A DNA stretch of 31,943 nucleotides, taken from NCBI RefSeq assembly GCF_900552465.1, contig NZ_URZO01000047.1; one strand, given 5' to 3'. Below are positions 4,288 to 26,062 of the stretch, in pieces. Under the pieces are notes generated by a model. It saw only the letters and a list, made by a program, of their open reading frames with translations, did no database searches and had not been told where the DNA came from. Both the position numbers and the translations under genes were made by a program. The first letter of the stretch is position 1. Each line of letters opens with the position of its first letter. This DNA comes from an uncultured Parabacteroides sp. GTDB taxonomy: Bacteria; Bacteroidota; Bacteroidia; Bacteroidales; Tannerellaceae.

Positions 4288-4300
4288 GATGGATTGTCTT

Positions 4301-5362: not shown

Positions 5363-5363
5363 A

Positions 5364-6290: not shown

Positions 6291-6319
6291 AATGTAATTG
6301 TCTATTGTTGATTGTGTTA

Positions 6320-8239: not shown

Positions 8240-8251
8240 GATATTGTCTTG

Positions 8252-8641: not shown

Positions 8642-8664
8642 GATATATAAGATTTGAATGAAAA

Positions 8665-11775: not shown

Positions 11776-11777
11776 AA

Positions 11778-13412: not shown

Positions 13413-13438
13413 TTTGTTGTTTTTTATTTGTTAGTGAA

Positions 13439-14293
13439 TTAGAACATGATGCCGATTCCCACATTGGCTTCTGCATATTTGAACTGGTTGGTTTGTGCGC
13501 CTGCTGAAATTGCAAAACCGCCAAAACGGATGATCAAGCCGATTTCCGCTTCTACGCCTTTGTAGGAATGATCTGTGTTCTTTACCCATAGTCCGTCGGT
13601 CGTTTCCCATCCTAATGTACGGAAGCCGTATCCCGCACCGGCATAAACATATCCGGTTTTCCAGATACGCTGCAGGACACCGCCGGTAATAGCTAAACGG
13701 CTTTTTTCCGTATTGCCGGAGTACCACGGCAGACTGCCTTCCGTACCAGTCAGGACTCCGCTATCGTCGCATTCCATGTTATCCGTGGATACGTTTTTAA
13801 AACTATACTTAGCTTTGATGTACCCTCCGGTTCGTTTAACAAGACCGACCATAATACCGTATGAAAATTGTTCGGGATTGATACCGGCAACAGGCATCAC
13901 TAATGTGCGGAGCTTATTGTTTTTGTCTTCGATGAGTTTTAAGGCGAGCTCATAAACCGTTTGCTTCTTAACCCGTTCAGGCAGTTCATACCGCAATACC
14001 CCATACTTGGCATGACGTATGGTAAGACGGCGGGTCCCTTCGGTGATGTAAATCATTGTTTCTCCGTTTTTGACAACCGGATCGCCGATTACGTTTCCCT
14101 CGAATGAGAAATCTTTGCCGGAGGATACGATTTTAATGACCGAACAGGGATTGTCATTCCGGTCCAGACGTTCCTGCGTACGTGCCGTGAGGTCGCGTTC
14201 TAATGCTTTATACGATTTTACACGGATCTCCTGTGCAAAAACAGATGAACTTACAGCCATAAACAGGCTTAAGAATAAAATTAGTTTCTTCAT
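13439..14293 (-). CDS. Predicted outer-membrane (beta-barrel-like C-terminus) protein, paralog 1
   Basis: Signal peptide MKKLILFLSLFMAVSSSVFAQ, with the start placed at Met12 after the NNNNNN leader. The C-terminus ...AEANVGIGIMF ends in an aromatic residue, with alternating hydrophobic residues in G/Y/A-rich strands. It is a clear paralog of 19542-20384 (ECDDSGV, KSRLAITGGVL, AGAGYGFR, GVEAEIG blocks). Confidence 0.65.
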   Translation of the reverse strand: MKKLILFLSLFMAVSSSVFAQEIRVKSYKALERDLTARTQERLDRNDNPCSVIKIVSSGKDFSFEGNVIGDPVVKNGETMIYITEGTRRLTIRHAKYGVLRYELPERVKKQTVYELALKLIEDKNNKLRTLVMPVAGINPEQFSYGIMVGLVKRTGGYIKAKYSFKNVSTDNMECDDSGVLTGTEGSLPWYSGNTEKSRLAITGGVLQRIWKTGYVYAGAGYGFRTLGWETTDGLWVKNTDHSYKGVEAEIGLIIRFGGFAISAGAQTNQFKYAEANVGIGIMF

Positions 14294-14309
14294 GTTGTTA
14301 TTATTATTA

Positions 14310-15305
14310 TTAAATTTCAAAATCATCTACGCTGAATATTTCATCTAAAGGAAGAGGGGTGTTGGCATCGATTTTTTCCGGCTGCCAGGTACGGACATGG
14401 ATTTTCGGTCCGGCTTCATTGTTGAAGTCCCATAATAAAAACAAGTAACCGATATCGCTGTAGCTGTCCGAGGAGTATCCCTGTTTCAGCAGTACGCCGT
14501 AATAGTTTTCCTTAGCGGGATGTGCATACACTTTGATTTCGTCGAACACAACATGGATACGTCTGTTGTTACGAAATACGTTGGAGAGACGTCCCAAATA
14601 TTGTTTTTTGCTTTGCACGCTGTATTCCACTTTCGCTTTGTCTCCCATGAATCCAAAGCCTTTTTCTACAGACTGGCGTTTAACGACTTTCCCCGTAATA
14701 ATTAACGCATCTTCACTGAATATCTGTTCCAGGAATTCCATATCCTTTGTGTTATAGGCTGTACGGAATTGTTCTACATAGTCCAGGATCATTTGCCGGC
14801 ATCGCATGTCTTTTACGGAAGCATTCTTTTTAATGACCTGTGTATACAGGTTATTACTGATGGCTAACTGGAAATTAGTAATTTCTCCCTGTGTATTGAA
14901 GTTGATGACAGCTTCCTGGTAGCGGTCTTCTCCGAATGTGTCCGGGTTGTCCGGCATCATCCATAGTGATATATTACGTACCTGATATCCGTCAATAGAG
15001 TTCAGGCATTTTTGAGTAAAACTTGTTTCCGAACATCTGAACGGTGTATTTTCCCATAAAGAAAGGATAGACGATTTCGCCCGTTCGCTTATGATGCAAT
15101 CGTTAAAAGCCGGGAGCTTACCATTGGCTTGTGCCGTATTAAACTCACTCAGTAATGAGGTGATGTTTTTTTCGATTTTCCCTTTTAGTCCGGCATTATC
15201 CAGATCCGTAATGGTTAATGTCGTCGCATATTGTGCGGAAGCGGATAAAAACATACAGAATGCAGGCAGCATGCATAAAAGAAGTTTGTAGATTATCTTT
15301 CTCAT
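14310..15305 (-). CDS. Secreted hypothetical protein (331 aa)
   Basis: N-terminal signal peptide MRKIIYKLLLCMLPAFCMFLSASAQ. It is on the same strand and tightly spaced within the secreted-protein cluster. I recognise no family. Confidence 0.6.
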   Translation of the reverse strand: MRKIIYKLLLCMLPAFCMFLSASAQYATTLTITDLDNAGLKGKIEKNITSLLSEFNTAQANGKLPAFNDCIISERAKSSILSLWENTPFRCSETSFTQKCLNSIDGYQVRNISLWMMPDNPDTFGEDRYQEAVINFNTQGEITNFQLAISNNLYTQVIKKNASVKDMRCRQMILDYVEQFRTAYNTKDMEFLEQIFSEDALIITGKVVKRQSVEKGFGFMGDKAKVEYSVQSKKQYLGRLSNVFRNNRRIHVVFDEIKVYAHPAKENYYGVLLKQGYSSDSYSDIGYLFLLWDFNNEAGPKIHVRTWQPEKIDANTPLPLDEIFSVDDFEI

Positions 15306-15319
15306 GTGTGTAGATATAT

Positions 15320-16339
15320 TTAATTGTTATTAGCTTGATTATTAATTCTGTATTTCGGTTTGCGGTCTCTCAGGCGAATATTGTAGTCGTCAAACAAATT
15401 CTCCAAGTTATGTACCGGCACATAAGCATACAGAGTCGCATCTATTTCACCTTTTTTGTCATGGAGTAGCTGCAGGGGAAAGTTGAAAAAGAAAATATGG
15501 ATATACCCTAACCTTCTGTTTACCATGATAACTGTTGCCCGGACAATATCTTTATCGTAGTATTCCGTGCCGAAATAGGGAATACACCCTTCTGACCGGC
15601 ATACTGATATCCATCGATTCAGCGGGACTTGGATATGCTCTTGTTTATTATTATATTTTTTTTGTGTGATATTTGCCTGTATGTTGTTTTCGATAAGACC
15701 AGAAGTCATCAGGTTGGATAATGTTTCCAGCGGATAACCGGTATCGTCCAACAGGCAGAATGAATTTCCTTTTTTTACATAGTATTGATCTGAACGCATA
15801 ATCTCTACCTGATAAAATCCGGGTGTCGCAATAAAAAAGTTCTTCGGTCCGGCCGGAACCAAATCTTCTTCTTTGGCCGGTTCGGGCATATATTCTGTGG
15901 AATGTTGGAGCAGTTTATCTTTCAGCAGGTTTTCAATTTCGATTTTATTCAACCCTAAAATGAGTTCATACTGGATAGGAAAAGAAATAGAGAGCAATTC
16001 ATCTTCTTTATCCCACCAAGTCATAAAACAACGTTTTTCATCCCGGATGGCTATCCGTACATCCTTTGAAGCATCCAGGAAAGATATAATAGTCGGATTC
16101 CCGTATTCAATGATGAATTTATCAGTTTTCATCTGTTCACGGGCTTCTTCCGGTTTGCTGTTTGACAGTTTATATAAATATCTTTCAACAAAAGAGCATA
16201 AGGGAGCATCCAAAGACTTTTTGATCTCCGGACTGAAAAGGACTGGATATTTTGGCGGTGCTGCCTCCGTTTGGGAAGACACTCTTTGTGCCGGTAATAC
16301 CAGAAAAAGGGGGATAATATAATAGAGAACGCATTTCAT
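15320..16339 (-). CDS. Secreted hypothetical protein (339 aa)
   Basis: Signal peptide MKCVLYYIIPLFLVLPAQRVSSQ. It is 6 nt downstream of the preceding gene, and I recognise no family. Confidence 0.6.
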   Translation of the reverse strand: MKCVLYYIIPLFLVLPAQRVSSQTEAAPPKYPVLFSPEIKKSLDAPLCSFVERYLYKLSNSKPEEAREQMKTDKFIIEYGNPTIISFLDASKDVRIAIRDEKRCFMTWWDKEDELLSISFPIQYELILGLNKIEIENLLKDKLLQHSTEYMPEPAKEEDLVPAGPKNFFIATPGFYQVEIMRSDQYYVKKGNSFCLLDDTGYPLETLSNLMTSGLIENNIQANITQKKYNNKQEHIQVPLNRWISVCRSEGCIPYFGTEYYDKDIVRATVIMVNRRLGYIHIFFFNFPLQLLHDKKGEIDATLYAYVPVHNLENLFDDYNIRLRDRKPKYRINNQANNN

Positions 16340-16345
16340 TCTATT

Positions 16346-17074
16346 CTATTTTTGAGGTAATCCGATAAGCAGGCTGCCTTTATATTTCCCCTTTGCGTCA
16401 TACCAGCGCCCTTGCACCAAATGGCCTTCATTATATTCGCCAATGATATAATCGCCTTTCTCCGCTTCCCGCTTTTTCTCATCGCGGGATTCAATAATAT
16501 GACGGCAGGTGAATGTCATTTTTCCTTTCGTATCGTGTGGCAGGTTGTATAAAATTTTACCATTCCAGATGGCATATCCGATGTTTATTTCCTGCGGCGT
16601 ATAATCTTCTTCATTCAATACGCAGATATCGTTTTCAGCCATAGGCTCTTCATCTTCGATATTCGCTTCCAATATAGGCTCTTCGGCTTGAACCTGAACC
16701 GGTTCCTGTACGGATATTTCTGGTTGTCTCTCTTCCTGCCGGGTTGCTTCGGGGAGAGTTATTTCCTCTTTTCCCTGTTCGGTTTCCTGTTCAACGGCAA
16801 GCACCTTTTCTGTCGCCACTTCCGGCTTGCGGGTGAATAAGGTATCCCGGAAGAAATAAACAGCAGCGCACCCTCCGCCAACTATAAGAATGGCTAAAAG
16901 GATGACAATTGTTTTGCGGGAGATTGCCATTTCTTTTCCATCCAGGATCGGGATGAGTGGCAGACCGCATTCTTGACAGACGAATTGTTCTTTTTTGTCG
17001 AGAATCTGTTCTTCCTGTTTTTCGGCTTTTGAACAATTGTCAATGTTACTGCATATACCTTTTCGTGTAGCCAT
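16346..17074 (-). CDS. Single-pass membrane protein with an N-terminal Cys-rich (zinc-ribbon-like) segment and a C-terminal MORN-like repeat region (242 aa)
   Basis: CSNIDNCS...CQECG gives two Cys pairs. A TM helix IVILLAILIVGGGCAAVYFF follows, then an acidic low-complexity stretch (EQETEQGKEE...QEERQPE). The C-terminal ...GDYIIGEYNEGHLVQGRWYDAKGKYKGSLLIG resembles MORN or YD-type repeats. Confidence 0.55.
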   Translation of the reverse strand: MATRKGICSNIDNCSKAEKQEEQILDKKEQFVCQECGLPLIPILDGKEMAISRKTIVILLAILIVGGGCAAVYFFRDTLFTRKPEVATEKVLAVEQETEQGKEEITLPEATRQEERQPEISVQEPVQVQAEEPILEANIEDEEPMAENDICVLNEEDYTPQEINIGYAIWNGKILYNLPHDTKGKMTFTCRHIIESRDEKKREAEKGDYIIGEYNEGHLVQGRWYDAKGKYKGSLLIGLPQK

Positions 17075-17101
17075 TTTTGTTATATTTTGAATGATTAGTG
17101 T

Positions 17102-17626
17102 CTATTTCTGATTGTATTTGATTGTATCGAATATCCTGCTGACCAGATAGGTCTGCTTTTTCCATTTTCTCTCTTTTAGCGTATAATGGATCTCTTTCCG
17201 GCTGGTATACAGGCAGATGTCATAAGGCTGTTGCATAGCATAAAAAGAAACGAATAGGTTATAAGGTATCTTGACCGTAGCACGATGTATCCAGGTTGCC
17301 TTTTTAGGCTGGACGAAAAGCATTTCGGCTTTACCTTTGTATAGGGTTTGTCCGTCTGCCGATAAAAAGAATATTGTTTCGGTTTTGCATAGCTCCTTAT
17401 TAATATATGTGTAGGAAAAGAGGATGGAATCGTTTGCCGTGAAATAGGTCAGGTCGTACTCCAGTCCTTTTTTTGCCGTATTGTCCGTACTGCTGAAACC
17501 CTTCTGTGGAAAAATGAAATAGAGGATTCCATTTTCCTGGGGGAGGAAAGAATAGTCTTTGTTTAGCTTCTGTGCCGATATAGGTATTGCAAATAGCAAA
17601 CCGATGATGAAAATGATATATTTCAT
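17102..17626 (-). CDS. Secreted hypothetical protein (174 aa)
   Basis: Signal peptide MKYIIFIIGLLFAIPISAQ. Y/F-rich and predicted to be beta-rich. I recognise no family. Confidence 0.55.
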   Translation of the reverse strand: MKYIIFIIGLLFAIPISAQKLNKDYSFLPQENGILYFIFPQKGFSSTDNTAKKGLEYDLTYFTANDSILFSYTYINKELCKTETIFFLSADGQTLYKGKAEMLFVQPKKATWIHRATVKIPYNLFVSFYAMQQPYDICLYTSRKEIHYTLKERKWKKQTYLVSRIFDTIKYNQK

Positions 17627-17650
17627 TTTTTGCAGATAATGTTATATATA

Positions 17651-17684
17651 AAGGATATCCGCTTAGTGAAAAGCAGATATCCTT
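17651..17684 (-). terminator. Hairpin downstream of the TRL-like lipoprotein gene
   Basis: aaggatatccgctt (17651-17664) pairs with aagcagatatcctt (17671-17684), a 14-bp stem with one G-U pair and loop agtgaa. It begins 13 nt after the stop of gene 17697-18005 on the minus strand. Confidence 0.45.
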
Positions 17685-17696
17685 TCGTTTGGGTGA

Positions 17697-18005
17697 TTAT
17701 TCTCCGTAGACAATTGTCTCGTAAGTAGTGTAAATACCTAAGATGGTATAATCCCGTTTGTCTACGTGGCTAACTCGTGTGATACCTGCATTTTTTGCCG
17801 CAGTCTGGTAGCTTGCATCACCAATCGCAACCAATCCTAGAATACCCATGGCTGACGAACGTCCTACTTTCTGAGCAACTCTATTACCCGTAACATCTTG
17901 TCCTGAAGTTACATCAGTGTAAGCAACTCCCATAACAGGTGAGGAGGTTACGCCACAACTTGTCAGCATGGCGCATGCACATAGTGCTAAAAACAACTTT
18001 TTCAT
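17697..18005 (-). CDS. TRL-like family lipoprotein (102 aa)
   Basis: Lipobox LTSCG. The size and sequence (...MGILGLVAIGDASYQTAAKNAGITRVSHVD...) resemble the Bacteroides TRL-like protein family as I recall it. Confidence 0.6.
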   Translation of the reverse strand: MKKLFLALCACAMLTSCGVTSSPVMGVAYTDVTSGQDVTGNRVAQKVGRSSAMGILGLVAIGDASYQTAAKNAGITRVSHVDKRDYTILGIYTTYETIVYGE

Positions 18006-18076
18006 TGTAGTGTGTATGTTTTACTGTTACCCTTCTCTTAACAGTTTTGTTTATGATTAACCGGAGAGGCGGTTCT

Positions 18077-18982
18077 TTATTCGAATAGTTGGAACCAGAT
18101 CGCTTTCATTCCCGTGTAGTTGCCTATGCGGTCGTCTGTCTTTCCCGTAAGCAGATTTCTCCTTTCTGTTTTACCTTTGTCAAGGATCGCTATTATCTGC
18201 CGGTCATTATTGAAAACGAGGATGTATGAACGTTCGGGAGCAGTCATGCTTTTTATTGTTCCATATATGATTTTATTATTTTCTTTGAGCTGTGCCAGCG
18301 AGTTGTTTAGCTCGTCTGAATTTTTGCATTGGATAATTTGTTGTATGGGCTGAGGATATCCGGCGGCATCGGCAACAGTTGTTTGGGGGTGTGTCGCCGG
18401 TTTTTCAGGTGTACTGCTGCTTTCAACCGGCTTGTTTTCAGCCGGCTTTGATATTACAGCCGATTCTTCTTCTGTCTTCTTTTCTTCTTCAGCCTTTTCT
18501 TCTTTCTTTAAATTGAAAGACCGTTCAAATCCTTCTTGTGCATAATTTTTGGTGGCTTCTGCATCAATCGGAGGATTAGATGAAATGGAAGGTGTATTTG
18601 TGTTTTCTTCCTTCTTCACTACTTCTTCCGTGATCAGGAAGTCCGCGGCAAGTTCCTTTGTATGTATATAGCAGAATATGCGTGGCTTATCGCCATCTAA
18701 CTCTATGATATCGGCATTATATACCGTGTTTTCAATAGAGACAGGATCTATTATCTGTTTTTTCTCCTTTAGCCAAGCTGTCGCTTTTGACAGTAAAGCC
18801 TTTTTTGCAGCATCTTCGGCATCTCCCCATGATTGGGCTTCACTTTCCGTATAAATATATTCGGCATTGTTTTTTATGCTTTTGATTTGCTCGCTCTCTG
18901 GTTGTTGGGCGAAAAGAGGGTTTGCTGAAAAAAGTAAATAAAGCAAAAGTCCCAGTAATGTGTTCGATTTAATCGTTTTCAT
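18077..18982 (-). CDS. Secreted protein with an acidic/lysine-rich low-complexity central region (301 aa)
   Basis: Signal peptide MKTIKSNTLLGLLLYLLFSANPLFAQQ. The central region KKEEKAEEEKKTEEESAVISKPAENKPVESSSTPEKPATHPQT is low-complexity. It is the first gene of the minus-strand cluster, next to the 560-bp divergent intergenic region. Confidence 0.6.
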   Translation of the reverse strand: MKTIKSNTLLGLLLYLLFSANPLFAQQPESEQIKSIKNNAEYIYTESEAQSWGDAEDAAKKALLSKATAWLKEKKQIIDPVSIENTVYNADIIELDGDKPRIFCYIHTKELAADFLITEEVVKKEENTNTPSISSNPPIDAEATKNYAQEGFERSFNLKKEEKAEEEKKTEEESAVISKPAENKPVESSSTPEKPATHPQTTVADAAGYPQPIQQIIQCKNSDELNNSLAQLKENNKIIYGTIKSMTAPERSYILVFNNDRQIIAILDKGKTERRNLLTGKTDDRIGNYTGMKAIWFQLFE

Positions 18983-19059: not shown

Positions 19060-19067
19060 CAAAAGTA
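19060..19067 (-). promoter_or_regulatory. Candidate -7 element (TActTTTG on the minus strand) for the minus-strand secreted-protein cluster
   Basis: The plus strand reads CAAAagTA at 19060-19067, about 75 nt upstream of the 18982 start codon. No clean -33 TTTG was seen. Confidence 0.3.
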
Positions 19068-19307
19068 TTGTCTTAATTTTAGAAAAAACTTGTTCTATAT
19101 TAAGACTTTTCTGGAGACGTAGAAGAATCAGACTTACCGTTATGGTTTTGTGACATCATAAGTATGATTTGCCAAAACCATACTTATGGCTATAATCTTC
19201 AATCAGCATAACGCTACAGCCTTTCTTATCTATTATTGAATTGCCAGTATTTGGCTGAATCGATACTTAGAATCAGACAAATGATTGTCTGACTCTTTTT
19301 AAGTTTT

Positions 19308-19339
19308 TTTGTAAACTTCATTTATTTGCACTATTTTTG
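19308..19339 (+). promoter_or_regulatory. Candidate Bacteroides sigma-A promoter (TTTG-N20-TAttTTTG) for the plus-strand sigma/caspase operon
   Basis: TTTG at 19308-19311 and TATTTTTG at 19332-19339 are separated by 20 nt, which matches the Bacteroides -33/-7 consensus geometry. The 5'UTR to the 19542 ATG would be about 195 nt. Confidence 0.4.
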
Positions 19340-19541
19340 TCACCTGAATAAACCGTAAAAGCGGAATATGAAAATACTGCACTATTTGATATCCTTTTTT
19401 GCAAATAAATAGGGGATGTACAGTTACTGATCCGGAGACTTCGGGAGGCAAACGTTCCCCACGTAAGCTTTCCTTTGTTACGGTATCGATTCCGACCATC
19501 CGGATACGACCGGATTGAAAATCGATTTAAGATAGATAGAA

Positions 19542-20384
19542 ATGATTAAAAGAGTTATATTTATATTGACTGTATTCTTTTTAATAGGAGTTCGACTTCA
19601 TGCACAGCGTATTACAAACGTTCGTTTTGAGCCTTTCGGGCGGGCGGTACGAGTTCATTATACACTGAGCCGCCTGCCGTTTGATTCGTTTGCGGCTTTG
19701 AACCTGTATGTCAGTACCAATGGAGGGGAGAGTTTTACCGATCCTTTGATACAGGTACAGGGAGACATCGGGAAGGTTGGGACGAATGGGGAGAAGACGG
19801 TTATCTGGCAGGCGGTGGACGAGATGGGGCAATTGGACGGGCAAATTGTCTTTGAGCTGCGGGGAGAAGTGGTGAAGGAAAAACAGGAGATGGAAAACCT
19901 GCTGATGTATAATGTTTCCGGCTCGTCTTGTTTTGGCCTGATGTATGGACGTGTGGCCCGCTGGGGCGGTTATGTGAGGGGGAAGACGAATTTCTCGTTT
20001 GAGGATGCTCCTTATACTTGTGATGACTCTGGCGTTTTCAATTATAAAGGAGAAACTGATTATTATGTAGTAGACAAGACCGTGAAACGGAGCCGGCTGG
20101 GAATAACGGGCGGAGTACTGTACCGGCCTGCCGGTTTTCTTTATTTGTATGTCGGAGCCGGTTACGGATATCGGCGTTTGATGTGGCACGCGGAAACGTT
20201 TGACTATTCGGACGGGCAACGGACTGGTGATTTGTGGGCTGTCAATACGCAAAACAGTGCTGATGGTGTTGAGGCTGAGTTAGGAGGTATTTTCCGGTAT
20301 AAGAAACTTGCTGTATCTTTGGGTATGAATACAGTCGGATTCTCTTTCTTTGAAGTAAACGGCGCAGTCGGATTCTTTTTTTAA
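19542..20384 (+). CDS. Predicted outer-membrane (beta-barrel-like C-terminus) protein, paralog 2
   Basis: Signal peptide MIKRVIFILTVFFLIGVRLHAQ. The C-terminus ...VNGAVGFFF is aromatic. It is a paralog of 13439-14293 (TCDDSGV, RSRLGITGGVL, VGAGYGYR, GVEAELG). The gap to the sigma-factor gene is 10 nt. Confidence 0.65.
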   Translation: MIKRVIFILTVFFLIGVRLHAQRITNVRFEPFGRAVRVHYTLSRLPFDSFAALNLYVSTNGGESFTDPLIQVQGDIGKVGTNGEKTVIWQAVDEMGQLDGQIVFELRGEVVKEKQEMENLLMYNVSGSSCFGLMYGRVARWGGYVRGKTNFSFEDAPYTCDDSGVFNYKGETDYYVVDKTVKRSRLGITGGVLYRPAGFLYLYVGAGYGYRRLMWHAETFDYSDGQRTGDLWAVNTQNSADGVEAELGGIFRYKKLAVSLGMNTVGFSFFEVNGAVGFFF

Positions 20385-20394
20385 TACGGGGTAA

Positions 20395-21570
20395 ATGACG
20401 GTACGGGAAGTGATAACAGAATTGATCCGGAAGGAGTGTGAAGCATATCAACTGATAAGGCTCGGTTTGATTTCTTCTGTCGAAGAGGGGGTAGAACGGT
20501 TATTGCCATTATTCGGGACGGTCGATTCTTCTGTCTTTAACGATTTTACCCGGTTTTCAGCCTGGCGTAAAGAGATTCTATTCTCCTTTTATAAACAACT
20601 GGACTATGCCGGTTTTATTCGTAGGGAAGGATCGGATGCACCTTTCAGACGTTTTCTGTTTTATTTAAAGAAGCGGATTACAGGATCTCTGCGTGAACAG
20701 TGTAAAGAGCCTACTATTGACAAAGATCTGGCTGTCCCGCCGGAGACGCTTGCTTTTAAGCTGTCGGTAATGCTGGAAGAAGAACTGTTCGCGAATGAGA
20801 AACTCCGGTTCTTCTCGGCCGACAGTCCGGCACAGGTGGAAGAACTATGCCGGGAGTCGTGCCGGAATTGCTTTCCGGTCGGTTTGCAAGATTTACTTGT
20901 CCGGTTAAAGAAAGATGATCCGGAGTTTTGGGATAGTTTATATCTGAAAATAAAAAAGATAGCCCAAAATGTCACATCTTGGCAATCTGTATCAATACAA
21001 TATAGAAAGGAGATTTTACAGGATACTTGGAGTGATACTTCTCTGTTGTTGCACGATAAGGTGACGGTAGATGATATTCCGGTGTTTGAAACCTCTCTGC
21101 ATTTTCGTAATTATATAGCCCGTATTTGTCTGAATAAGTGCAGGGAAGCGGTCCGGAAACATAATCTTCCGGATATTTCGCTGACTGCTACGGGAGAGAT
21201 ACCTGCCGATACGTTTCTGTCTCCGGAAGAGGATATTCCGGAGATTTGTTTGCAGGAAAATGGTCTTGTGGATATCGATTGTGAAAATGAAGAAGAAGTC
21301 GGGCGTAGTCTTACTCTTATTTTGTGGGACAAACTCGAACCCTGGTATACAGAGCTAACCAGCGGGATAGAGGAAAAGACGGAGCTGATATTCCTCCATT
21401 ATGTCGAAGGATTATCGTATGAGGCGATTGCTGCGGCAAAGGGGGCGGATTTGTCAAGTGAAGAACGGAACCGGCTGGCAGGTAAGCTGAGGCAGGATGC
21501 GGTTCGTGCTCGTCGTATTTTAAGGCAGCGTTTTGTCGTACTTTTGAAAAACAATAAAAGGCATGGGTGA
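20395..21570 (+). CDS. ECF-type sigma-70 family protein with a ~190-aa N-terminal extension
   Basis: Region-2-like segment ...YRKEILQDTWSDTSLLL...LHFRNYIARICLNKCREAVRK. Region-4 HTH TELIFLHYVEGLSYEAIAAAKGADLSSEERNRLAGKLRQDAVRARRIL. The N-terminal extension has no family I recognise. Its 3' end overlaps the next gene by 8 nt. Confidence 0.6.
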   Translation: MTVREVITELIRKECEAYQLIRLGLISSVEEGVERLLPLFGTVDSSVFNDFTRFSAWRKEILFSFYKQLDYAGFIRREGSDAPFRRFLFYLKKRITGSLREQCKEPTIDKDLAVPPETLAFKLSVMLEEELFANEKLRFFSADSPAQVEELCRESCRNCFPVGLQDLLVRLKKDDPEFWDSLYLKIKKIAQNVTSWQSVSIQYRKEILQDTWSDTSLLLHDKVTVDDIPVFETSLHFRNYIARICLNKCREAVRKHNLPDISLTATGEIPADTFLSPEEDIPEICLQENGLVDIDCENEEEVGRSLTLILWDKLEPWYTELTSGIEEKTELIFLHYVEGLSYEAIAAAKGADLSSEERNRLAGKLRQDAVRARRILRQRFVVLLKNNKRHG

Positions 21571-21991
21571 TTGTAAAGAACATAAAGATAGGCAGTTGCG
21601 GGATTATTTCCTGAACAGGCTGAGTCTGGAAGAAACGGAAATCTTCCAGTTTCATCTGCTCCATTGTGAGGCTTGCCGGATAAAGCTGGAACGTATGCGG
21701 CGGCTGGCGCATGAAGAAGAGACAGAATCTGTTTCCGCATTCGATGCGGAAAAGTCAAACGCTAAAAAACATCGTTTGACTTTCTCCGTCTTTACCCGTG
21801 TGGCTGCGGTTGCCGGCTTGCTTGTGTTACTGGCGGGTGGTGGTTATTATTTTACACATATTCCATCGGATGAAGGCTTGCATTTGGAGATGAATGAGCC
21901 GCCTGTTTTTCATTCGGGCGATTCCGTAGTGATTGACACGGACAGTACGGTTGTCGACAAGAAAGAGAAGGAGGTACAAGATGCGGAGTAA
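21563..21991 (+). CDS. Zinc-finger (zf-HC2 / ZAS-type) anti-sigma factor, single-pass membrane protein
   Basis: FQFHLLHCEACR carries the H-x3-C-x2-C motif. A TM helix VFTRVAAVAGLLVLLAGGGYYF and a short extracytoplasmic tail follow. Its start overlaps the sigma gene (ATGGGTGA) and its end overlaps the next gene by 11 nt. Confidence 0.6.
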   Translation: MGDCKEHKDRQLRDYFLNRLSLEETEIFQFHLLHCEACRIKLERMRRLAHEEETESVSAFDAEKSNAKKHRLTFSVFTRVAAVAGLLVLLAGGGYYFTHIPSDEGLHLEMNEPPVFHSGDSVVIDTDSTVVDKKEKEVQDAE

Positions 21992-22955
21992 ATGGATTTT
22001 CCTGTTCGTTTTGTTATGCCTGTTTGCCTGTAAGTCCCGGCAACCGGAAAATGGAACTGTACGGATTGCGAAAGACGAGCAATTGCAGGAAGCAAGCCGC
22101 CAGTTGCTAACCGAAGGTTACCGGACACTGGCCGGAAAGCTGCCATTGGAAGAACAGCTTGCTGAATCCTGGCGTTATCAGCGGGAAAAAGATGCCGGGG
22201 GAGAAGCTCGTTTTTTTGTTGTCTCGGTCCGGTCGAAAGGTGATAGTTTTGATGCGGCCCGTATGCAGGCGGAAAGTCTGGCGAAAGTACAATTGGCCGG
22301 GTTGATGGAAACGCGTGTCGGGCAGCTTGTGACGAACCGGATGGAAACTTCGGACGGGAATACGGTGATGCAGACTATTGCAAGTAGCAAGAATCTGGTT
22401 ACGACACGGCTATCCAATCTTTACCCTCTGATGGAAGTGTATAAGGATTGTCCGGACGGAAGCGTTGAAGTCCAGCTGGTAATGGGATGCGACCGGAGAT
22501 GGGCAAGCGAGATTGCCTGGGCTGTCATTTCGGCCGAGGCAGCGCAACATTCTTCCAGGTCCGGTTCATTTAGCTTTACTCTGACAGGATTGAATAATAC
22601 GTATCGCGCGGGTGAATCATTACGTTTTTCCCTGACGGCGGGACAGGATTGCTATTATCATCTGTTTATATTTGATGCTGCAGGTGTTGACCTGTTGTAT
22701 CCGGGTGAATATGAAGAACGTTCTCTTTTTCTAAAAGGTGTGGAGTATTCCTTTCCGCGAAGCCAGTGGGTTGCCTATAGTGTAGAGAAAGGGAATCGTC
22801 CGGCCCGTTATGAGCAGAATATATTGTTGGTAGTCGCTACGCGGGATGATATTCCTTATACCGGTGAAATGACAGTCAGCAGTGTCCTGGGATGGTTGCG
22901 CCGTGTTCCGGAAGGGCAGAAGAGCGAGCAGTATTTTTCTTTTCTTTCTGAATAG
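21981..22955 (+). CDS. Lipoprotein with an LPP20-like region and a C-terminal DUF4384-like domain
   Basis: Start at MRSKWIFLFVLLCLFACKS with lipobox LFAC. The middle region (AESLAKVQLAGLMETRVGQLV...) is LPP20-like. The C-terminal GESLRFSLTAGQDCYYHLFIFDAAGVDLLYPGEYEERSLFLKGVEYSFP resembles the DUF4384 domain, which commonly sits next to caspase-domain proteins. This is a recollection, not a search result. Confidence 0.5.
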   Translation: MRSKWIFLFVLLCLFACKSRQPENGTVRIAKDEQLQEASRQLLTEGYRTLAGKLPLEEQLAESWRYQREKDAGGEARFFVVSVRSKGDSFDAARMQAESLAKVQLAGLMETRVGQLVTNRMETSDGNTVMQTIASSKNLVTTRLSNLYPLMEVYKDCPDGSVEVQLVMGCDRRWASEIAWAVISAEAAQHSSRSGSFSFTLTGLNNTYRAGESLRFSLTAGQDCYYHLFIFDAAGVDLLYPGEYEERSLFLKGVEYSFPRSQWVAYSVEKGNRPARYEQNILLVVATRDDIPYTGEMTVSSVLGWLRRVPEGQKSEQYFSFLSE

Positions 22956-22963
22956 ATGCGGGT

Positions 22964-24301
22964 ATGAAGAAAAGTCTGTCCTTATATGGTTGGTTGCTGA
23001 TCGTTTGCCTGTGGAGTGCCGGGCATACGGAAGCGGTCATTGCCCAAGTAAGTGCGGATGACGATTTTGAAAATTATTTATCTGCTATAGAAGAAGATTT
23101 TTATACTTTTCAAGATAGCATAAACCGTGATTTTGCCGATTATCTGGAACAGGCATGGCAGGAGTTTACGGTGTATGAAGGAACGGAACCTCCCGTGTAT
23201 GCAGGGGGTGGTGATCCTGCTCCGGCACCCGCCCGGACGGTACGGAGTCATGCGGCGGGCAGTCTTCATGACACCTTTTTCGGGTGCACCTTGCAACTGC
23301 CGGTTTTACCGGCGAAGTCTTTGTCTCTGTCCGGATCGTCTGAAAAGGTGGTGGCAGACGGGTGGCGGAAGTTGGCTACTGAAGATTTTACTTCTTTTTT
23401 CGGCGCTTACCGGAAGTATTCCCGGAAGCTACATCTGAATGACTGGGGTAATTATCAGTTGCTAAAGTATATCAGCCAACAGCAATATGCATCATTTTCT
23501 CAGCAGGAACAGATCTTGTTCTTATTCTATGTATTAAGTAACGCCGGTTACAGGGTGAAAATCGGTAGGGCGGGGGAAACATCTCTGGTTTTGCTGCTCC
23601 CTTTTATCGAAGAGGTTTACAGGCTTCCGTTTATTCGGGTGGGAGAAGAGAAATATTATGTGTTGGATACTGGTTCGGAACGTTTGAAGAAACTTTATTC
23701 TATTGCTTCCGATTATCCGAAGGCGGAGAATATTATATCTTTGAAGATACGGGAGGCATTAGTGTTTCCGGAAAATAACGTAAAGCATATAAACCGGAAT
23801 CTGCTTGATTTCTATGCAACGTATCCGCTTTGTGATTTATCGGTTTATTTCTGTTCGCTCCCTTCCGCGGCTTTTGCCGGATATATGGATACGGTTGTAA
23901 AGAAGAATCTGGAAGGCAGGTCAAGCCCGGAGCAGATCGCGTGGCTGCTGGATTTTGTTCAACAGAAGTTTACTCATAAACCAGATGTAGAGGTACATGG
24001 TTCTGAGGTCTATTATTTTCCGGAAGAAACGGCTTTTTATCCGTATGCGGATTGTGAAGATTTATCTGTATTTTTGTCTTGGTTGGTGAGACGGTATGTG
24101 ACCGGTGAAGTGTTGACCTTGTATTATCCTGCTCATGTGGCTCTTGCTGTTGAAAGTGGTGACGGATATAAAGGTGAGGTTCTGAAGTTCCGGAATAAAG
24201 AATACGTGATTTGCGATCCGTCTTATAGAGGAGCAGCACCGGGAAAAGTGATACCGGCTTGTGCTTCTTTGAAGCCTGTTATTGTTTCGTATTTCAAATA
24301 A
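22964..24301 (+). CDS. Secreted protein with a C-terminal transglutaminase-like (papain-fold Cys-His-Asp) signature
   Basis: Signal peptide MKKSLSLYGWLLIVCLWSAGHTEA. The C-terminal ...YPYADCEDLSVFLSWLVRRYVTGEVLTLYYPAHVALAV...EYVICDPSY has Cys, His and Asp in the order and spacing of transglutaminase-like cysteine peptidase cores. This rests on motif-level inference only. Confidence 0.5.
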   Translation: MKKSLSLYGWLLIVCLWSAGHTEAVIAQVSADDDFENYLSAIEEDFYTFQDSINRDFADYLEQAWQEFTVYEGTEPPVYAGGGDPAPAPARTVRSHAAGSLHDTFFGCTLQLPVLPAKSLSLSGSSEKVVADGWRKLATEDFTSFFGAYRKYSRKLHLNDWGNYQLLKYISQQQYASFSQQEQILFLFYVLSNAGYRVKIGRAGETSLVLLLPFIEEVYRLPFIRVGEEKYYVLDTGSERLKKLYSIASDYPKAENIISLKIREALVFPENNVKHINRNLLDFYATYPLCDLSVYFCSLPSAAFAGYMDTVVKKNLEGRSSPEQIAWLLDFVQQKFTHKPDVEVHGSEVYYFPEETAFYPYADCEDLSVFLSWLVRRYVTGEVLTLYYPAHVALAVESGDGYKGEVLKFRNKEYVICDPSYRGAAPGKVIPACASLKPVIVSYFK

Positions 24302-24314
24302 AGGAAGGAGAAGA

Positions 24315-25298
24315 ATGGATAAATTGATATTGTCATTGATACTGTTGTTCGGCTTTGGGGGACTATCGGAAGTCGCAGCGCAAAAGAAGATATCCGGACG
24401 TTCTGTCCCGATCCAGTTCAGCATGATTGAATCGTCTGTAAAGCAGAATGTTCAGGAAAGCTCATTGAAGAGTAATTATGTATCGTCTCTTCAGGTTACA
24501 GATCTGGATTCATTGCCGGATGAGGTGGCTGTACGTCCTTATTCTGTGGCTGTTATAATAGGAGTGGAACAATATGACTTTATTCCGTTTGCGCCCTATG
24601 CTGCTCATGATGCGGAGTTGGTTTCCCGCTATTTTAAGGCCTTATTAGGTGTGGACAGGGTGATTGTTCATAAAAATAAAGAAGTATCCGGATTCTTTTT
24701 TGAGAACTTATTCAATGCAGAAGAAGGTGAATTATCCCGGATAATAGAAAAGGGAAAGACCGACTTATTTGTTTATTATTCAGGGCATGGGGTCTCGGCT
24801 GCCGATGGAAAAGATGTTTATATGCTTCCTGCTGACAGTAAGTTGAGGCTGATAGAAAAACAAGGTTATAGCCTGAATTCCCTGTTTGAACAGCTGGATA
24901 AACTGCCGACGAAGAGTACTACAGTCTTTATAGATGCTTGTTTCAGCGGATTAGGTAAATTTTCACAAACAGGTTCTCCACTAAATCTAATGCAGACCAA
25001 AGGGGTCAAAGTAAAACCTCTGCTTTTCCAGCCCTGGCTCCGGAATCCGAATTTCAGGGTGTTTACTTCGTCTGCAACGAATCAGGCTTCATTAGTGCTG
25101 GATGAAGCACGTACCGGATTGTTTACCTATTTCCTGGCAATGGGGTTACGTGGAAGGGCTGATATGAATCAAGACGGGCATGTGACTGCCGATGAATTGT
25201 ACCGGTATATTTACTCAAATGTTTCTGAAAACTCTAAAAAGATCTATCAAGAGCAGACTCCTTGCTTTTACGGGGATGGATCTTTTGTCCTTTATTAG
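24315..25298 (+). CDS. Secreted caspase-fold peptidase (peptidase C14 / metacaspase-orthocaspase-like)
   Basis: Start at MDKLILSLILLFGFGGLSEVAAQ, preceded by aaggaaggagaagaATG. The catalytic dyad context reads FVYYSGHGV (His) and TVFIDACFSGLG (Cys), typical of caspase/metacaspase p20 cores. A signal peptide implies a periplasmic or surface location. Confidence 0.7.
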   Translation: MDKLILSLILLFGFGGLSEVAAQKKISGRSVPIQFSMIESSVKQNVQESSLKSNYVSSLQVTDLDSLPDEVAVRPYSVAVIIGVEQYDFIPFAPYAAHDAELVSRYFKALLGVDRVIVHKNKEVSGFFFENLFNAEEGELSRIIEKGKTDLFVYYSGHGVSAADGKDVYMLPADSKLRLIEKQGYSLNSLFEQLDKLPTKSTTVFIDACFSGLGKFSQTGSPLNLMQTKGVKVKPLLFQPWLRNPNFRVFTSSATNQASLVLDEARTGLFTYFLAMGLRGRADMNQDGHVTADELYRYIYSNVSENSKKIYQEQTPCFYGDGSFVLY

Positions 25299-25441: not shown

Positions 25442-26062
25442 ATGGAAGATAGTAGGAAGATGCTATATGATATAGCTTATGAGAAAATGTTTACTGCGAT
25501 GAATCGTTATCATCCGGTTTCCGAAAGTCTTCGTGAGATGATTTATGACAATAGTGTCTCATCTCAATTTTCTAAAGGCGAATTATTACTGACTGAAAGT
25601 AGAGAGTGTAATATGTTGTTTTTCATAGCAAGCGGATTTTGTTCCTGCTTCTATAATAAAGATGGTAAAGAATGTATTATGCGGTTTGCCGGAGAAGGAA
25701 ACTTTTGTACATCGTGGCATAGCTTTTTTGGAAAACAACGTTCTTTGATTAATATTAAAGCGACGGAAGATACGATGACCGTTTACTTTACGCGGGAGCA
25801 TTTTGACAAGCTGTGGGACGAGAGTACAGAGTTCGTAGCTGTTATATGCAGGATACTTGAAATGTATGCTATCGAAAGTGAAGAAAAGATATTCCGGATG
25901 CGTAGCAACCAGGCTGAAGGAAGAGTCCGGCATTATATGGATACGCATGAGATACATTATTTGATGAAACATGTCCCCCGTTATAATATTGCTTCTTATC
26001 TGGACATGACGCAGGAAACCTTTTCTAAGATATTTACTCAGTTGAACAAAGAACAAAAGTAA
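25442..26062 (+). CDS. Crp/Fnr-family transcriptional regulator
   Basis: 206 aa. The N-terminal part resembles a cNMP-binding beta-barrel (FSKGELLLTESRECNMLFFIASGF...) and the C-terminal part an HTH (IASYLDMTQETFSKIFTQL). The size and architecture are typical of Bacteroides Crp/Fnr-like regulators. Confidence 0.65.
   Translation: MEDSRKMLYDIAYEKMFTAMNRYHPVSESLREMIYDNSVSSQFSKGELLLTESRECNMLFFIASGFCSCFYNKDGKECIMRFAGEGNFCTSWHSFFGKQRSLINIKATEDTMTVYFTREHFDKLWDESTEFVAVICRILEMYAIESEEKIFRMRSNQAEGRVRHYMDTHEIHYLMKHVPRYNIASYLDMTQETFSKIFTQLNKEQK

Follow-up and report, generated by a model that had tools for sequence, protein, structure and literature searches.

A conserved Bacteroidales gene set linking a putative ECF-type sigma/anti-sigma pair to exported proteases, a candidate trans-envelope signalling module

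The DNA analysed here (the window, 31,943 nucleotides from an uncultured Parabacteroides sp., contig NZ_URZO01000047.1) carries six co-directional, tightly packed plus-strand open reading frames (19542-25298; Table 1), and their six functions travel together over deep divergence. Because far-removed relatives carry the same gene set, in one case with caspase and anti-sigma factor joined in a single protein, the module is probably a new protease-driven route of signalling across the cell envelope. We put at about even odds the specific reading that the region encodes a conserved module for signalling across the envelope in Bacteroidales of the gut and elsewhere, in which cleavage of the anti-sigma factor by the caspase, possibly with the LapG-like enzyme, frees the sigma factor.

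In this scheme, an envelope or surface signal would be received through the outer-membrane protein g1, the DUF4384 lipoprotein g4 and variable FN3/BACON-Kelch/LRR/Glug surface proteins. The signal would activate the caspase g6, possibly in a Ca2+-dependent manner, and the LapG-like protease g5 may act jointly with the caspase or upstream of it. Site-1 cleavage of the periplasmic part of the anti-sigma factor g3 would be followed by removal of its membrane stub by an RseP-type site-2 protease, and the freed sigma factor g2 would then transcribe its regulon.

Table 1. Features of the operon and its surroundings in the window
Feature	Position	Strand	Basis
g1, exported protein, 280 aa	19542-20384	+	signal peptide, orthologue alignment A4
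g2, predicted ECF-type sigma factor, 391 aa	20395-21570	+	fold and profile evidence
g3, predicted zinc-binding (ZAS-type) anti-sigma factor, 142 aa	21563-21991	+	zf-HC2
g4, lipoprotein	21981-22955	+	lipobox, DUF4384 (Pfam)
g5, secreted protein, 445 aa, predicted C-terminal transglutaminase-like/LapG-like cysteine protease domain	22964-24301	+	fold
g6, secreted Peptidase C14 (caspase/orthocaspase-type), 327 aa	24315-25298	+	Pfam
Promoter block upstream of g1, Bacteroides-type	19305..19343	+	read from sequence
Crp/Fnr-like regulator (cNMP_binding and HTH_Crp_2)	25442..26062	+	Pfam
Divergent promoter	19060..19104	-	read from sequence
Divergent nine-gene cluster, eight genes encoding exported proteins	10021..18982	-	Pfam; N-terminal signal peptides, lipoboxes
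FN3+LRR lipoprotein in divergent cluster	11778-13412	-	Pfam
FN3+Glug lipoprotein in divergent cluster	10021-11775	-	Pfam

Predicted functions of the six genes

All six reading frames and their spacings are as originally predicted: from g1 to g6, a 10-nt gap, an 8-nt overlap, an 11-nt overlap, an 8-nt gap and a 13-nt gap. The ATG starts of g4 and g6 are each internal to a longer TTG-initiated reading frame, and the motifs of g3-g6 were confirmed codon by codon. The caspase, DUF4384 and zf-HC2 calls of that prediction are borne out by Pfam matches above gathering scores; its sigma factor with an N-terminal extension and its transglutaminase-like protein fall below Pfam thresholds and are supported by fold and profile evidence.

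The g2 product is predicted to be an ECF-type sigma factor from a separate family in which a helical N-terminal domain is always present. This extension spans aa 1 to about 165-190, includes the hallmark motif ELIRKECEAYQL (20413-20460), is kept across ~107 family representatives and is followed by sigma2 (about aa 196-257; 20980-21165), a disordered linker (aa 259-289) and sigma4 (aa 296-391; 21280-21567). The protein aligns collinearly with RpoE across both domains, ECF sigma factors dominate both fold searches (region-4 structures 26-30% identical), and a search of 1.84 billion proteins with the family profile recovers a canonical ECF sigma factor (E=1.5e-4). These results make it very improbable that g2 is a sigma-like decoy or other regulator, in the manner of PhyR, which would make the pair something other than an ordinary ECF transcription switch. 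That idea draws on the lack of a Sigma70_r2 match in Pfam, a Sigma70_r4_2 match below the Pfam threshold (E=0.014), a TIGR02937 score of 21 bits (cut-off 42.9), the absence of sigma factors among the PDB sequences matched in a profile search, and a large N-terminal domain with no match in the fold search. Residue conservation also speaks for a working sigma factor: R366 and R371, in a basic helix where the region-4 recognition helix falls, are invariant in the family-wide alignment (A7), Q367 and R373 are additionally invariant in the closer set (A1), and the region-2 motif HFRNY..C.NK is conserved within A1. A cognate zinc-binding anti-sigma gene is adjacent in all cases.

That partner, g3, is predicted from its motifs to be the single-pass ZAS-type anti-sigma factor of g2 (zf-HC2, E=9.5e-5). 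Its putative zinc site, C4 plus H31-x3-C35-x2-C38 (HLLHCEAC at 21653-21676), is invariant in 12 orthologues, and H31, C35 and C38 are invariant in the distant clade too. One transmembrane helix (about aa 78-98, within 21788-21862; a single hydrophobic peak, KD19=2.09) precedes a 42-aa periplasmic tail (21863-21988) with the conserved motif EMNEPPVFHSGDSV..DS.

By profile and motifs, the g6 product is an exported C14 caspase with an intact His/Cys dyad. Its Peptidase_C14 match is strong (E=2.4e-15), and it scores 70.6 bits against NF047832, below the cut-off of 140. The predicted dyad comprises His158 in YYSGHG (24774-24791) and Cys209 in DACFSG (24933-24950), and an EF-hand-like loop, DMNQDGHVTADE, lies within 25152-25202. 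Across 18 homologues, H158, C209, D207, A282, D283 and E294 do not vary.

For g5, an AF2 model (pLDDT 83, pTM 0.80) supports a LapG-like Cys-His-Asp protease of transglutaminase fold. Its best Foldseek matches are LapG structures (4u65_E, E=1.4e-4; 4fgp, 4fgq, 4fgo), followed by 3isr, menin, 3kd4, PNGase and TglA. The predicted catalytic residues, Cys364 (24053-24055; ADCED, 24047-24061), His391 (24134-24136; PAHVA, 24128-24142) and Asp418 (24215-24217; ICDPS, 24209-24223), do not vary among 28 homologues, nor in distant orthologues and paralogues. The window copy has no Pfam match, and Transglut_core is found in only 2 of the 28 homologues (best E=0.062).

The g4 lipoprotein has the lipobox LFAC (within 22020-22037) with a nearly invariant Cys17 (alignment A6), an alpha/beta domain at its N-terminus and DUF4384 at its C-terminus (aa 207-263; 22599-22769; E=4.3e-8); in three Tannerellaceae MAGs it is split into two genes. 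The g1 product combines a beta-rich N-terminal domain (about aa 22-110) with a predicted small C-terminal beta-barrel of about 160 aa ending ...GAVGFFF. That it is OMP-like, as proposed, is weakly supported by OMP_b-brl matches in 4/9 orthologues (best E=9.5e-5) and by the C-terminal ...GFFF, although the window copy has no Pfam match.

Conservation, distant loci and the anti-sigma-caspase fusion

The six genes are kept in identical order in 8 of 11 Tannerellaceae species, in which the sigma factor is only 35-81% identical, and the gene set recurs beside distant-clade sigma genes; the arrangement is thus far beyond chance. Shared contigs carry sigma, g5 and g6 homologues. Sigma factors of the distant clade share about 22-26% identity with that of the window and have the same partner genes on metagenome contigs. 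Pfam-confirmed sets include sigma, anti-sigma, g1-like, caspase and g5-like genes in L033/L034, these together with two DUF4384 genes in L027, and sigma, anti-sigma, DUF4384 and caspase genes in L030. DUF4384 genes lie 3' of the anti-sigma gene in distant loci, and g1 homologues are found both in distant sigma loci (hhalign 98.4%) and, at full length, directly 3' of outgroup caspases.

FN3/BACON proteins with Kelch, LRR, Glug or FGE-sulfatase domains are encoded within or adjoining most full-set related loci; in L027, L033 and L034, BACON/Glug, BACON/LRR and FGE-sulfatase proteins lie between the g1-like and caspase genes. The six-gene unit first described holds as a gene set, but the unit is larger and more modular, with these proteins and, in Tannerellaceae, a Crp-like neighbour.

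In one lineage, seen in three independent assemblies, the caspase is predicted to be the periplasmic domain of the anti-sigma factor itself. Immediately 3' of the sigma gene, L031:3848-5098 encodes an HxxxCxxC anti-sigma domain, a transmembrane segment and a Peptidase_C14 domain (E=1.9e-25) with YYSGHG and LDAC intact. Its cytoplasmic domain is nearly identical to those of the L030 and L032 anti-sigma factors, whose periplasmic domain differs. In L035 no further gene follows the sigma and fusion genes, so that the two appear to form a self-sufficient unit. The co-localisation that the original prediction proposed to check in other genomes holds over deep divergence, and a natural fusion exists. 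Whether the proteases are trigger or output of the switch had been left open; the fusion and the two-gene unit, together with analogy, favour a trigger without proving it.

A less likely alternative is that the sigma/anti-sigma pair senses another cue, such as thiol or redox stress via the zinc site or envelope stress via the short tail, and that its only link to the exported proteins is control of their expression from the shared transcript. On this reading, the caspase and g5 would process or release FN3/BACON-LRR/Glug/Kelch lipoproteins anchored through the outer-membrane protein and the DUF4384 lipoprotein, in the way that the LapA adhesin is released by LapG. The layout predicts that the exported-protein and regulator genes are co-transcribed, the closest fold to g5 is that of a periplasmic adhesin-releasing protease, and large surface repeat proteins are encoded within or beside the operons. 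Three Parabacteroides genomes (leei, gordonii and one uncultured) point the same way: they retain the sigma factor and an anti-sigma factor whose tail has the same motif, but not the caspase, DUF4384 or g1 genes, and in place of these a divergent operon encodes distant g5 paralogues, so the caspase is not an obligatory partner of that tail. Two-gene pairs of caspase and g1 also occur without a sigma gene, which suggests a sigma-independent role for the protease as well. Such a model has difficulty explaining the fusion and a two-gene unit with no adjacent target, and the visible operon promoter is housekeeping-type rather than sigma-specific. The output and trigger models are compatible, since proteases that act as the trigger could also belong to the regulon, giving positive feedback.

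Promoters and genomic setting

The promoter block upstream of g1 has a -33 TTTG (19308-19311) and a -7 TAnnTTTG (19332-19339) separated by 20 nt, and this ~35-nt block also precedes the operon in two other loci (L011 and L012) despite non-aligning flanks. It looks like a housekeeping-type promoter with no obvious ECF-type element, and a search for an ECF-type autoregulatory motif found none, which weighs against the proposed signalling module. A homologue of the Crp-like gene is adjacent or within about 3 kb in 9/11 Tannerellaceae loci, the exceptions being the incomplete locus L014 and L020, with none in the stretch searched. As a constant neighbour of the sigma/anti-sigma pair in Tannerellaceae, this regulator is possibly part of the system.

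The divergent promoter has the -7 box TACTTTTG (reverse complement of 19060-19067) and an FNR/CRP-like palindrome, TTGTT-CTAT-ATTAA (19090-19103), then G (pattern match 19090-19104), centred about -41.5. The identical palindrome is found at identical spacing between the sigma gene and the divergent operon in L016-L018, and upstream of the Crp-like gene in L021. The FN3+LRR and FN3+Glug lipoproteins of the divergent cluster belong to classes also present within distant operons, and L011, L019 and L020 have homologues of its u4-u6 close to the operon; the cluster's proteins are possible accessory or sensor components. Mobile-element-type HU-HIG and VapE-like primase genes flank several loci.

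In a narrower version of the trigger model, the switch would detect phages or competitors attacking the envelope and turn on a defence regulon, as in DdvA-DdvS. We consider this unlikely, even though both known couplings of a caspase-fold protein to an ECF sigma factor (DdvA-DdvS and Craspase) serve anti-phage defence, the variable LRR, Kelch and Glug partners fit pattern-recognition components, an Abi_2 gene adjoins the fusion locus L035, and there are the mobile-element-type flanking genes. PADLOC returned only a weak partial caspase match (E=7.9e-6) for the six proteins and nothing significant for the upstream cluster, and no CRISPR or RNA family matches were found within the window. The operon occupies a conserved chromosomal site beside a methylmalonyl-CoA decarboxylase operon, not an obvious defence island.

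Comparison with known systems

The original prediction did not know the combination with two exported papain-fold or caspase-fold enzymes as a described ECF group. The idea does have precedents, the closest being Myxococcus DdvA-DdvS, with a periplasmic CHAT domain on a zinc-binding anti-sigma factor, and type III-E Craspase, which cleaves the RpoE-binding Csx30. In Myxococcus xanthus, the ECF sigma factor DdvS pairs with DdvA, a transmembrane zinc-binding anti-sigma factor with a periplasmic TPR-CHAT caspase-fold domain, and the pair switches on a CBASS/CRISPR island; CHAT-mediated cleavage is a proposal only, and DdvA-like proteins are reported from Myxococcota and one Comamonas only (PMC6061681, PMC11506125). 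The module described here shares an ECF-type sigma factor predicted to be held by a single-pass anti-sigma factor whose zinc-binding domain is in the cytoplasm, a periplasmic protease domain of caspase fold with His and Cys, and the proposed logic of site-1 cleavage followed by RseP; the L031 relative, like DdvA, unites anti-sigma domain, transmembrane segment and caspase in one protein. Unlike DdvA, the protease is of Peptidase C14 (orthocaspase) type rather than CHAT, without TPR, and the window's copy is secreted as a protein of its own beside an anti-sigma tail of only 42 aa. Further differences from DdvS/DdvA are the conserved extra partners (LapG-like protease, DUF4384 lipoprotein, small outer-membrane protein and variable surface repeat proteins), a sigma factor from another family, whose N-terminal domain measures about 165-190 aa, and Bacteroidales hosts with no adjacent defence island.

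In type III-E systems, the TPR-CHAT protease Csx29 cuts Csx30, a binding partner of Csx31 and of the ECF sigma factor RpoE (PMC9825189, PMC10028731, bioRxiv 10.1101/2022.08.17.504292). Cleavage of the sigma-binding protein is there a demonstrated signalling step, and in some Csx30 groups the C-terminal domain is DUF4384 (PMC9825189, PMC10028731). A caspase-fold protease, an ECF sigma factor with a sigma-binding inhibitor and a linked DUF4384 are thus common to both. Craspase is cytoplasmic, RNA-guided (Cas7-11) and of CHAT type, whereas the present module has no CRISPR component, exports its proteases, has a membrane-bound, zinc-binding anti-sigma factor and carries DUF4384 on a lipoprotein of its own.

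Other likenesses are partial. As in LapG/LapD/LapA, g5 is exported, with a predicted fold closest to LapG and an invariant Cys-His-Asp triad, and large surface proteins are encoded nearby; unlike LapG, g5 is below threshold for Transglut_core (PF01841) and has an extra N-terminal domain in its 445 aa, and the window shows no LapD-like c-di-GMP receptor, LapA-type RTX adhesin or type I secretion genes. FecA/FecR/FecI likewise encodes an outer-membrane protein with a domain N-terminal to the barrel together with a sigma/anti-sigma pair, activated by regulated proteolysis of the anti-sigma factor (as proposed here), whereas g1 is a small barrel and not a TonB-dependent transducer, g3 has no FecR domain and the sigma family differs. 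BldN (ECF121), a pro-sigma factor with an N-terminal extension, is among the fold matches of g2 and is also under anti-sigma control. The ECF classification paper describes such extensions as rare and mostly short (PMC7826278); that of g2 differs in its length, its conservation across the family and its lack of a fold match. Finally, g6 resembles orthocaspases/metacaspases (Peptidase C14) in its above-threshold Pfam match and its dyad in SGHG and D-x-C-x-S-G motifs. An association of bacterial caspase homologues with DUF4384 has been described. What sets g6 apart is that it is exported, single-domain and genetically tied to an outer-membrane protein and a sigma switch.

The six-gene operon and its protein families

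The operon was proposed to comprise six plus-strand ORFs (g1 to g6) with overlaps or short gaps, and these were recovered at exactly the predicted coordinates and spacings. A codon-by-codon check reproduced all of the quoted sequence motifs, and the g1-g6 start codons are identical in public gene calls for identical contigs. The host is close to P. acidifaciens, whose proteins are 80-95% identical. The operon adjoins a methylmalonyl-CoA decarboxylase operon; the OAD_gamma subunit of the decarboxylase operon (28003-28896, minus strand) has a Lamin Tail Domain (LTD) at its N-terminus, which is an uncommon fusion.

Features of the operon, its surroundings and related loci (coordinates with an L number belong to other loci, all others to the window)
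Feature	Coordinates	Strand	Remarks
g1	19542-20384	+	ORF; junction to g2 +10 nt
g2	20395-21570	+	ORF; junction to g3 -8 nt
g3	21563-21991	+	ORF; junction to g4 -11 nt
g4	21981-22955	+	ORF; junction to g5 +8 nt
g5	22964-24301	+	ORF; junction to g6 +13 nt
g6	24315-25298	+	ORF
Promoter block	19305-19343		Bacteroides-type -33 TTTG and -7 TAnnTTTG boxes
Leader	19344-19541		about 200 nt between promoter block and g1 start codon
FNR/CRP-like palindrome TTGTT-CTAT-ATTAA	19060-19104 region (palindrome 19090-19103)		divergent minus-strand promoter
Divergent cluster	10021-18982	-	nine genes: eight exported proteins, one zinc-ribbon/TM protein
FN3+LRR lipoprotein	11778-13412	-	divergent cluster
FN3+Glug lipoprotein	10021-11775	-	divergent cluster
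SPFH/Band-7 protein	8665-9879	-	several C-terminal zinc ribbons
639-aa protein	6320-8239	-	no Pfam match
Bactofilin-like protein	3316-4287	-	
Caspase/OMP pair	L022:1-1517, L023:4506-6115, L024:4667-6790		278-280-aa g1 homologue directly 3' of caspase
Reduced variant	L018:2955-9802 (P. gordonii), likewise L016		sigma and anti-sigma genes facing divergent operon; two distant g5 paralogues
L027			sigma, anti-sigma, g1-like, BACON/Glug protein, caspase, g5-like, two DUF4384 genes
L033/L034			sigma, anti-sigma, g1-like, BACON/LRR protein, FN3/BACON/FGE-sulfatase protein, caspase, g5-like
L030			sigma, anti-sigma, DUF4384, CARDB-caspase
L028, L032			sigma, anti-sigma, DUF4384

The caspase, DUF4384 and zf-HC2 assignments of the original prediction all stand, with PF00656, PF14326 and PF13490 above their Pfam cut-offs. 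Judged from its sequence, g6 is a Peptidase C14 caspase/orthocaspase homologue with intact catalytic residues: it matches Peptidase_C14 (PF00656) at 57.3 bits (cut-off 21.4, E=2.4e-15), all 18 aligned homologues have H158 and C209, and the protein carries a signal peptide. The model for the EACC1-associated type of caspase (NF047832) scored 70.6 bits, below its cut-off of 140. Residues 280-296 (25152-25202) form an EF-hand-like loop, GRADMNQDGHVTADELY, which occurs in all aligned homologues with A282, D283 and E294 invariant, and which may point to regulation by Ca2+, as seen with metacaspases and LapG.

The sigma factor g2 is more divergent. No Pfam match to Sigma70_r2 was found in it, Sigma70_r4_2 fell below the Pfam threshold (E=0.014), and the region-2 family model TIGR02937 reached 21.2 bits against a cut-off of 42.9 (E=1.8e-4); PDB sequences searched with a profile of the closer sigma-family alignment (A1) yielded nothing relevant. 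However, g2 is collinear with E. coli RpoE over both domains (hhalign, probability 70%, E=4e-5), and its AF2 model (pLDDT 80) has AlgU, sigmaE, CnrH, SigL and SigW as top Foldseek matches, with marginal single fold E-values. The fold consists of sigma2 and sigma4, collinear with known ECF sigmas, and has no sigma3. When run against 1.84e9 proteins, the A1 profile also retrieves P0232 (E=1.5e-4), a canonical ECF sigma that passes the Pfam models Sigma70_r2, r4_2 and Sigma70_ECF and so links g2 by sequence to bona fide members. Together, the RpoE alignment, the structural matches and this family-profile link make g2 a predicted ECF-type sigma despite the missed Pfam and NCBIfam cut-offs.

The first ~165-190 residues of g2 are an N-terminal extension that is all-helical in the AF2 model and had no match in the fold search. 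It is common to the whole sigma family (~107 representatives, nearly all 360-430 aa), in which its hallmark motif is E-I-[IV]-x-K-E-x-E-[RK]-[YH]-x-L. In the published ECF classification, by contrast, N-terminal extensions are described as rare and short, and the main text contains neither caspase nor transglutaminase (PMC7826278). Full-text literature searches found no paper describing this gene combination.

The product of g3 is, by its conserved motifs, a zinc-binding (ZAS-type) anti-sigma. It matches PF13490 (zf-HC2) at 22.9 bits against a cut-off of 22.2, and its N-terminal anti-sigma domain contains the zinc motif H-x3-C-x2-C, with C4, H31, C35 and C38 invariant in the homologue alignment. 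One hydrophobic segment (aa ~78-98, KD19=2.09) gives a predicted topology of a single TM helix with a cytoplasmic N-terminus, followed by a periplasmic tail of 42 aa with a conserved EMNEPPVFHSGDSV..DS motif.

The transglutaminase-like call for g5 holds for its fold and its Cys-His-Asp triad, but found no Pfam counterpart: there is no Transglut_core (PF01841) match at E<=1, and the same model matches 2/28 g5 homologues (best E=0.062). Searching PDB sequences with a g5-family profile (A2) also gave nothing relevant. The AF2 model of g5 (pLDDT 83, pTM 0.80) shows a papain/transglutaminase core fold, for which Foldseek places LapG best (E=1.4e-4 to 9e-3, probability 1.0), with further matches to the transglutaminase-fold proteins 3isr, menin, 3kd4, PNGase and TglA. 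All 28 homologues keep Cys364, His391 and Asp418, as do distant orthologues and paralogues. The scanned window proteins contained no LapD-type receptor or LapA-type adhesin domains.

The g4 product is a lipoprotein (lipobox LFAC) with DUF4384 (PF14326) at aa 207-263 (33.6 bits, cut-off 27), and its gene is split in two in three Tannerellaceae MAGs. An LPP20-like identity for its N-terminal domain lacked Pfam support and was dropped; this domain has no significant similarity to the 180-aa gene product that follows the L030 anti-sigma. In the g1 product, a signal peptide and a beta-rich N-domain are followed by a C-terminal part that ends in GFFF. Its assignment as an OMP-like protein is weakly supported by family matches: OMP_b-brl (PF13505) matches 4/9 orthologues (best E=9.5e-5), but not the window copy.

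Conservation of the module and a natural fusion

In a scan that covered one genome per species, the sigma gene turned up in 11 species, all of them Tannerellaceae. The order g1-g6 is kept in eight of the 11 (one cut by a contig end), with sigmas 35-81% identical. Three Parabacteroides (leei, gordonii and one uncultured) have a reduced variant in which only sigma, anti-sigma and Crp-like genes are kept, and in their loci a divergent operon encodes one or two distant paralogues of g5. In P. gordonii (L018), which was the locus scanned, the two distant g5 paralogues (26% identity) keep the catalytic triad, and the divergent operon also encodes DUF5683, a CarboxypepD_reg/BACON/Laminin_G_3 (LamG) protein and a small OMP without similarity to g1; no caspase, DUF4384 or g1 gene was found at this locus.

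The broad sigma alignments A7 and A8 were too divergent for locus finding. The subfamily alignment A9, which covers a clade ~22-26% identical to the window sigma, led to eight metagenome loci; the neighbourhoods inspected are a sample of the sigma family. The same partner genes reappear at these distant loci, and a zf-HC2 anti-sigma lies directly 3' of the sigma in 11/11 Tannerellaceae and 8/8 distant loci. The predicted co-localisation in other genomes was therefore borne out, and this synteny rules out chance adjacency of g1-g6.

At one distant locus (L031), the single ORF after the sigma joins a HxxxCxxC zinc-binding domain, a TM helix and Peptidase_C14 (E=1.9e-25) with YYSGHG and LDAC intact. 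The same anti-sigma::caspase protein occurs in three assemblies (L031, L035 and L036), always after the sigma gene, and in L035 no further module gene follows it. The cytoplasmic domain of the L031 fusion is near-identical to those of the L030 and L032 anti-sigmas, whose periplasmic domain differs, marking a recent domain swap. The window g3 itself has only its 42-aa tail and no caspase domain, the caspase being a separate gene, and so does not have the one-polypeptide architecture of DdvA. Close to the minimal unit of sigma and anti-sigma::caspase in L035 there is an Abi_2 (abortive infection) gene (L035:790-1716).

The nearest outgroup caspases, from other Bacteroidales, are 44-55% identical, and some of these nearest relatives have CARDB-like N-terminal domains. 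Each is followed by a full-length g1 homologue, and no sigma gene was seen among the neighbouring genes readable on these short contigs. Because the outgroup caspases directly precede g1 homologues with no sigma among the readable neighbours, the caspase and g1 appear to be an older two-gene unit. More distant caspases (P0112, P0127) have unrelated gene contexts, CsgG-like and others.

Conserved gene order and the natural fusion link the caspase both to the membrane anti-sigma as a candidate substrate and to sigma-dependent transcription as a read-out. The caspase-free loci of the P. gordonii type and the sigma-free caspase/g1 pairs support the main rival model, in which the proteases would act on surface proteins as outputs of the switch. 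We consider this model rather unlikely, and it may also be true together with one in which a protease triggers the sigma.

Promoters and neighbouring genes

Two other species also have the promoter block 5' of the operon, although its flanks do not align. Among 15 upstream regions compared, only Bacteroides housekeeping-type -33/-7 boxes were recognisable and no ECF-type promoter motif was found; generic sigma-70 and terminator scans performed no better than shuffles. A hairpin with a T-run lies just upstream of the block (19273-19292). Rfam had no matches across the whole window, so the g1 leader corresponds to no known RNA. P. acidifaciens (L011) lacks this leader, and there only a few bases separate the block from the start codon.

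A Crp-like gene (25442-26062 in the window) is adjacent or within ~3 kb in 9/11 Tannerellaceae loci. The window palindrome is ~29 nt from the divergent -7 box and so at about -41.5; in other loci it has the form TTGAT-N4-ATTAA, with the same spacing in L016-L018, and it also occurs upstream of the Crp-like gene in L021. The Crp-like regulator may drive the divergent operon. The divergent cluster includes a TRL lipoprotein and an OMP-like protein ending GIGIMF. In its FN3+LRR and FN3+Glug lipoproteins the Cys is followed by EKDTAPE or KEDTAPE, which resembles the Bacteroidetes surface-export signal. Protein classes of this cluster are also found inside distant operons (L027, L033), and an FN3-Kelch gene lies directly upstream of g1 in 6/8 complete loci. 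Elsewhere in the window, 3316-9879 (minus strand) is a run of poorly characterised genes.

In a Tannerellaceae MAG (L007/L019:1-9000), two Ser/Thr protein kinase genes and two Kelch beta-propeller genes precede the operon on the same strand, as do homologues of the window genes at 14310-16339. Mobile-element-type genes for HU-HIG and BT4734-like/VapE-like primase lie a few kb upstream of the operon in several species (L012:2556-5140, L013:5109-7585, L018:711-2792). The operon neighbourhood seems to be an insertion hot spot.

A candidate caspase-controlled sigma switch

The analysis establishes what the domains are, that export signals are present and catalytic residues intact, and that the genes are co-conserved over deep divergence and fused in one lineage. 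We are highly confident that this is a genuine co-functional envelope module built around the sigma/anti-sigma pair. In the mechanism that we propose, the role of sensor or adaptor would fall to the OMP, to the DUF4384 lipoprotein and to variable surface repeat proteins, and the caspase, alone or with the LapG-like enzyme, would cleave the anti-sigma on its periplasmic side. A site-2 protease would then complete removal of the anti-sigma, and the sigma would be released. The specific step in which a protease triggers the sigma is put forward tentatively, as a realistic possibility. It is unlikely, and we offer it as speculation, that the module is a wholly extracytoplasmic caspase pathway of gut commensals, in which variable LRR/Kelch/Glug/BACON lipoprotein sensors would act on a periplasmic C14 caspase (with LapG-like protease, DUF4384 and OMP adaptors) as site-1 protease of the zinc-binding anti-sigma, freeing an unclassified ECF sigma family.

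C14 caspase homologues and DUF4384 domains are common in bacteria, but to our knowledge hardly any has been assigned a substrate or role. The role of this caspase could be tested directly in culturable Parabacteroides, for example P. acidifaciens. If a protease does trigger the sigma, sigma switches under caspase control, of which Myxococcus DdvA and type III-E CRISPR are the examples to date, would also be present in gut Bacteroidales and involve a second protease family, and regulated intramembrane proteolysis would gain a new type of site-1 protease. It would also define a sigma family that is missed by standard models and probably by the ECF classifications built on them. The full extracytoplasmic pathway, if true, would be a bacterial cascade from sensor to caspase to transcription, with a logic analogous to eukaryotic innate-immune caspase activation, and would assign the first physiological substrate to a bacterial C14 caspase in Bacteroidota.

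PADLOC, run on the six proteins and the upstream cluster, gave one weak partial caspase match and one marginal PDC-S14 match, and thus no support for a known defence system. The data support the coupling of a caspase-fold protease with an ECF sigma/anti-sigma switch, for which the closest known system is DdvA-DdvS. DdvA of M. xanthus combines a zinc-binding anti-sigma with a periplasmic TPR-CHAT caspase-fold module (PMC11506125; PMC6061681); signal-induced autoproteolysis followed by RseP has been proposed, and the authors state that this mechanism 'would be unprecedented' and describe a narrow distribution (PMC11506125). Craspase acts through Csx29, which cuts Csx30, a binding partner of the ECF sigma RpoE; DUF4384 is the C-terminal domain of some Csx30 (PMC9825189, PMC10028731). 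Of the type III-E Craspase components (Cas7-11, a CRISPR array and the TPR-CHAT protein Csx29) there was no sign: Rfam gave no CRISPR-DR match in the window, and the scanned window proteins gave no Cas-like Pfam matches. The one-protein architecture of DdvA is matched by the fusions in L031, L035 and L036, with C14 instead of TPR-CHAT. Compared with both DdvA-DdvS and Craspase, the module differs in its C14 protease family, its split architecture, its LapG-like, DUF4384 and OMP partners, its distinct sigma family and the phylum of its host.
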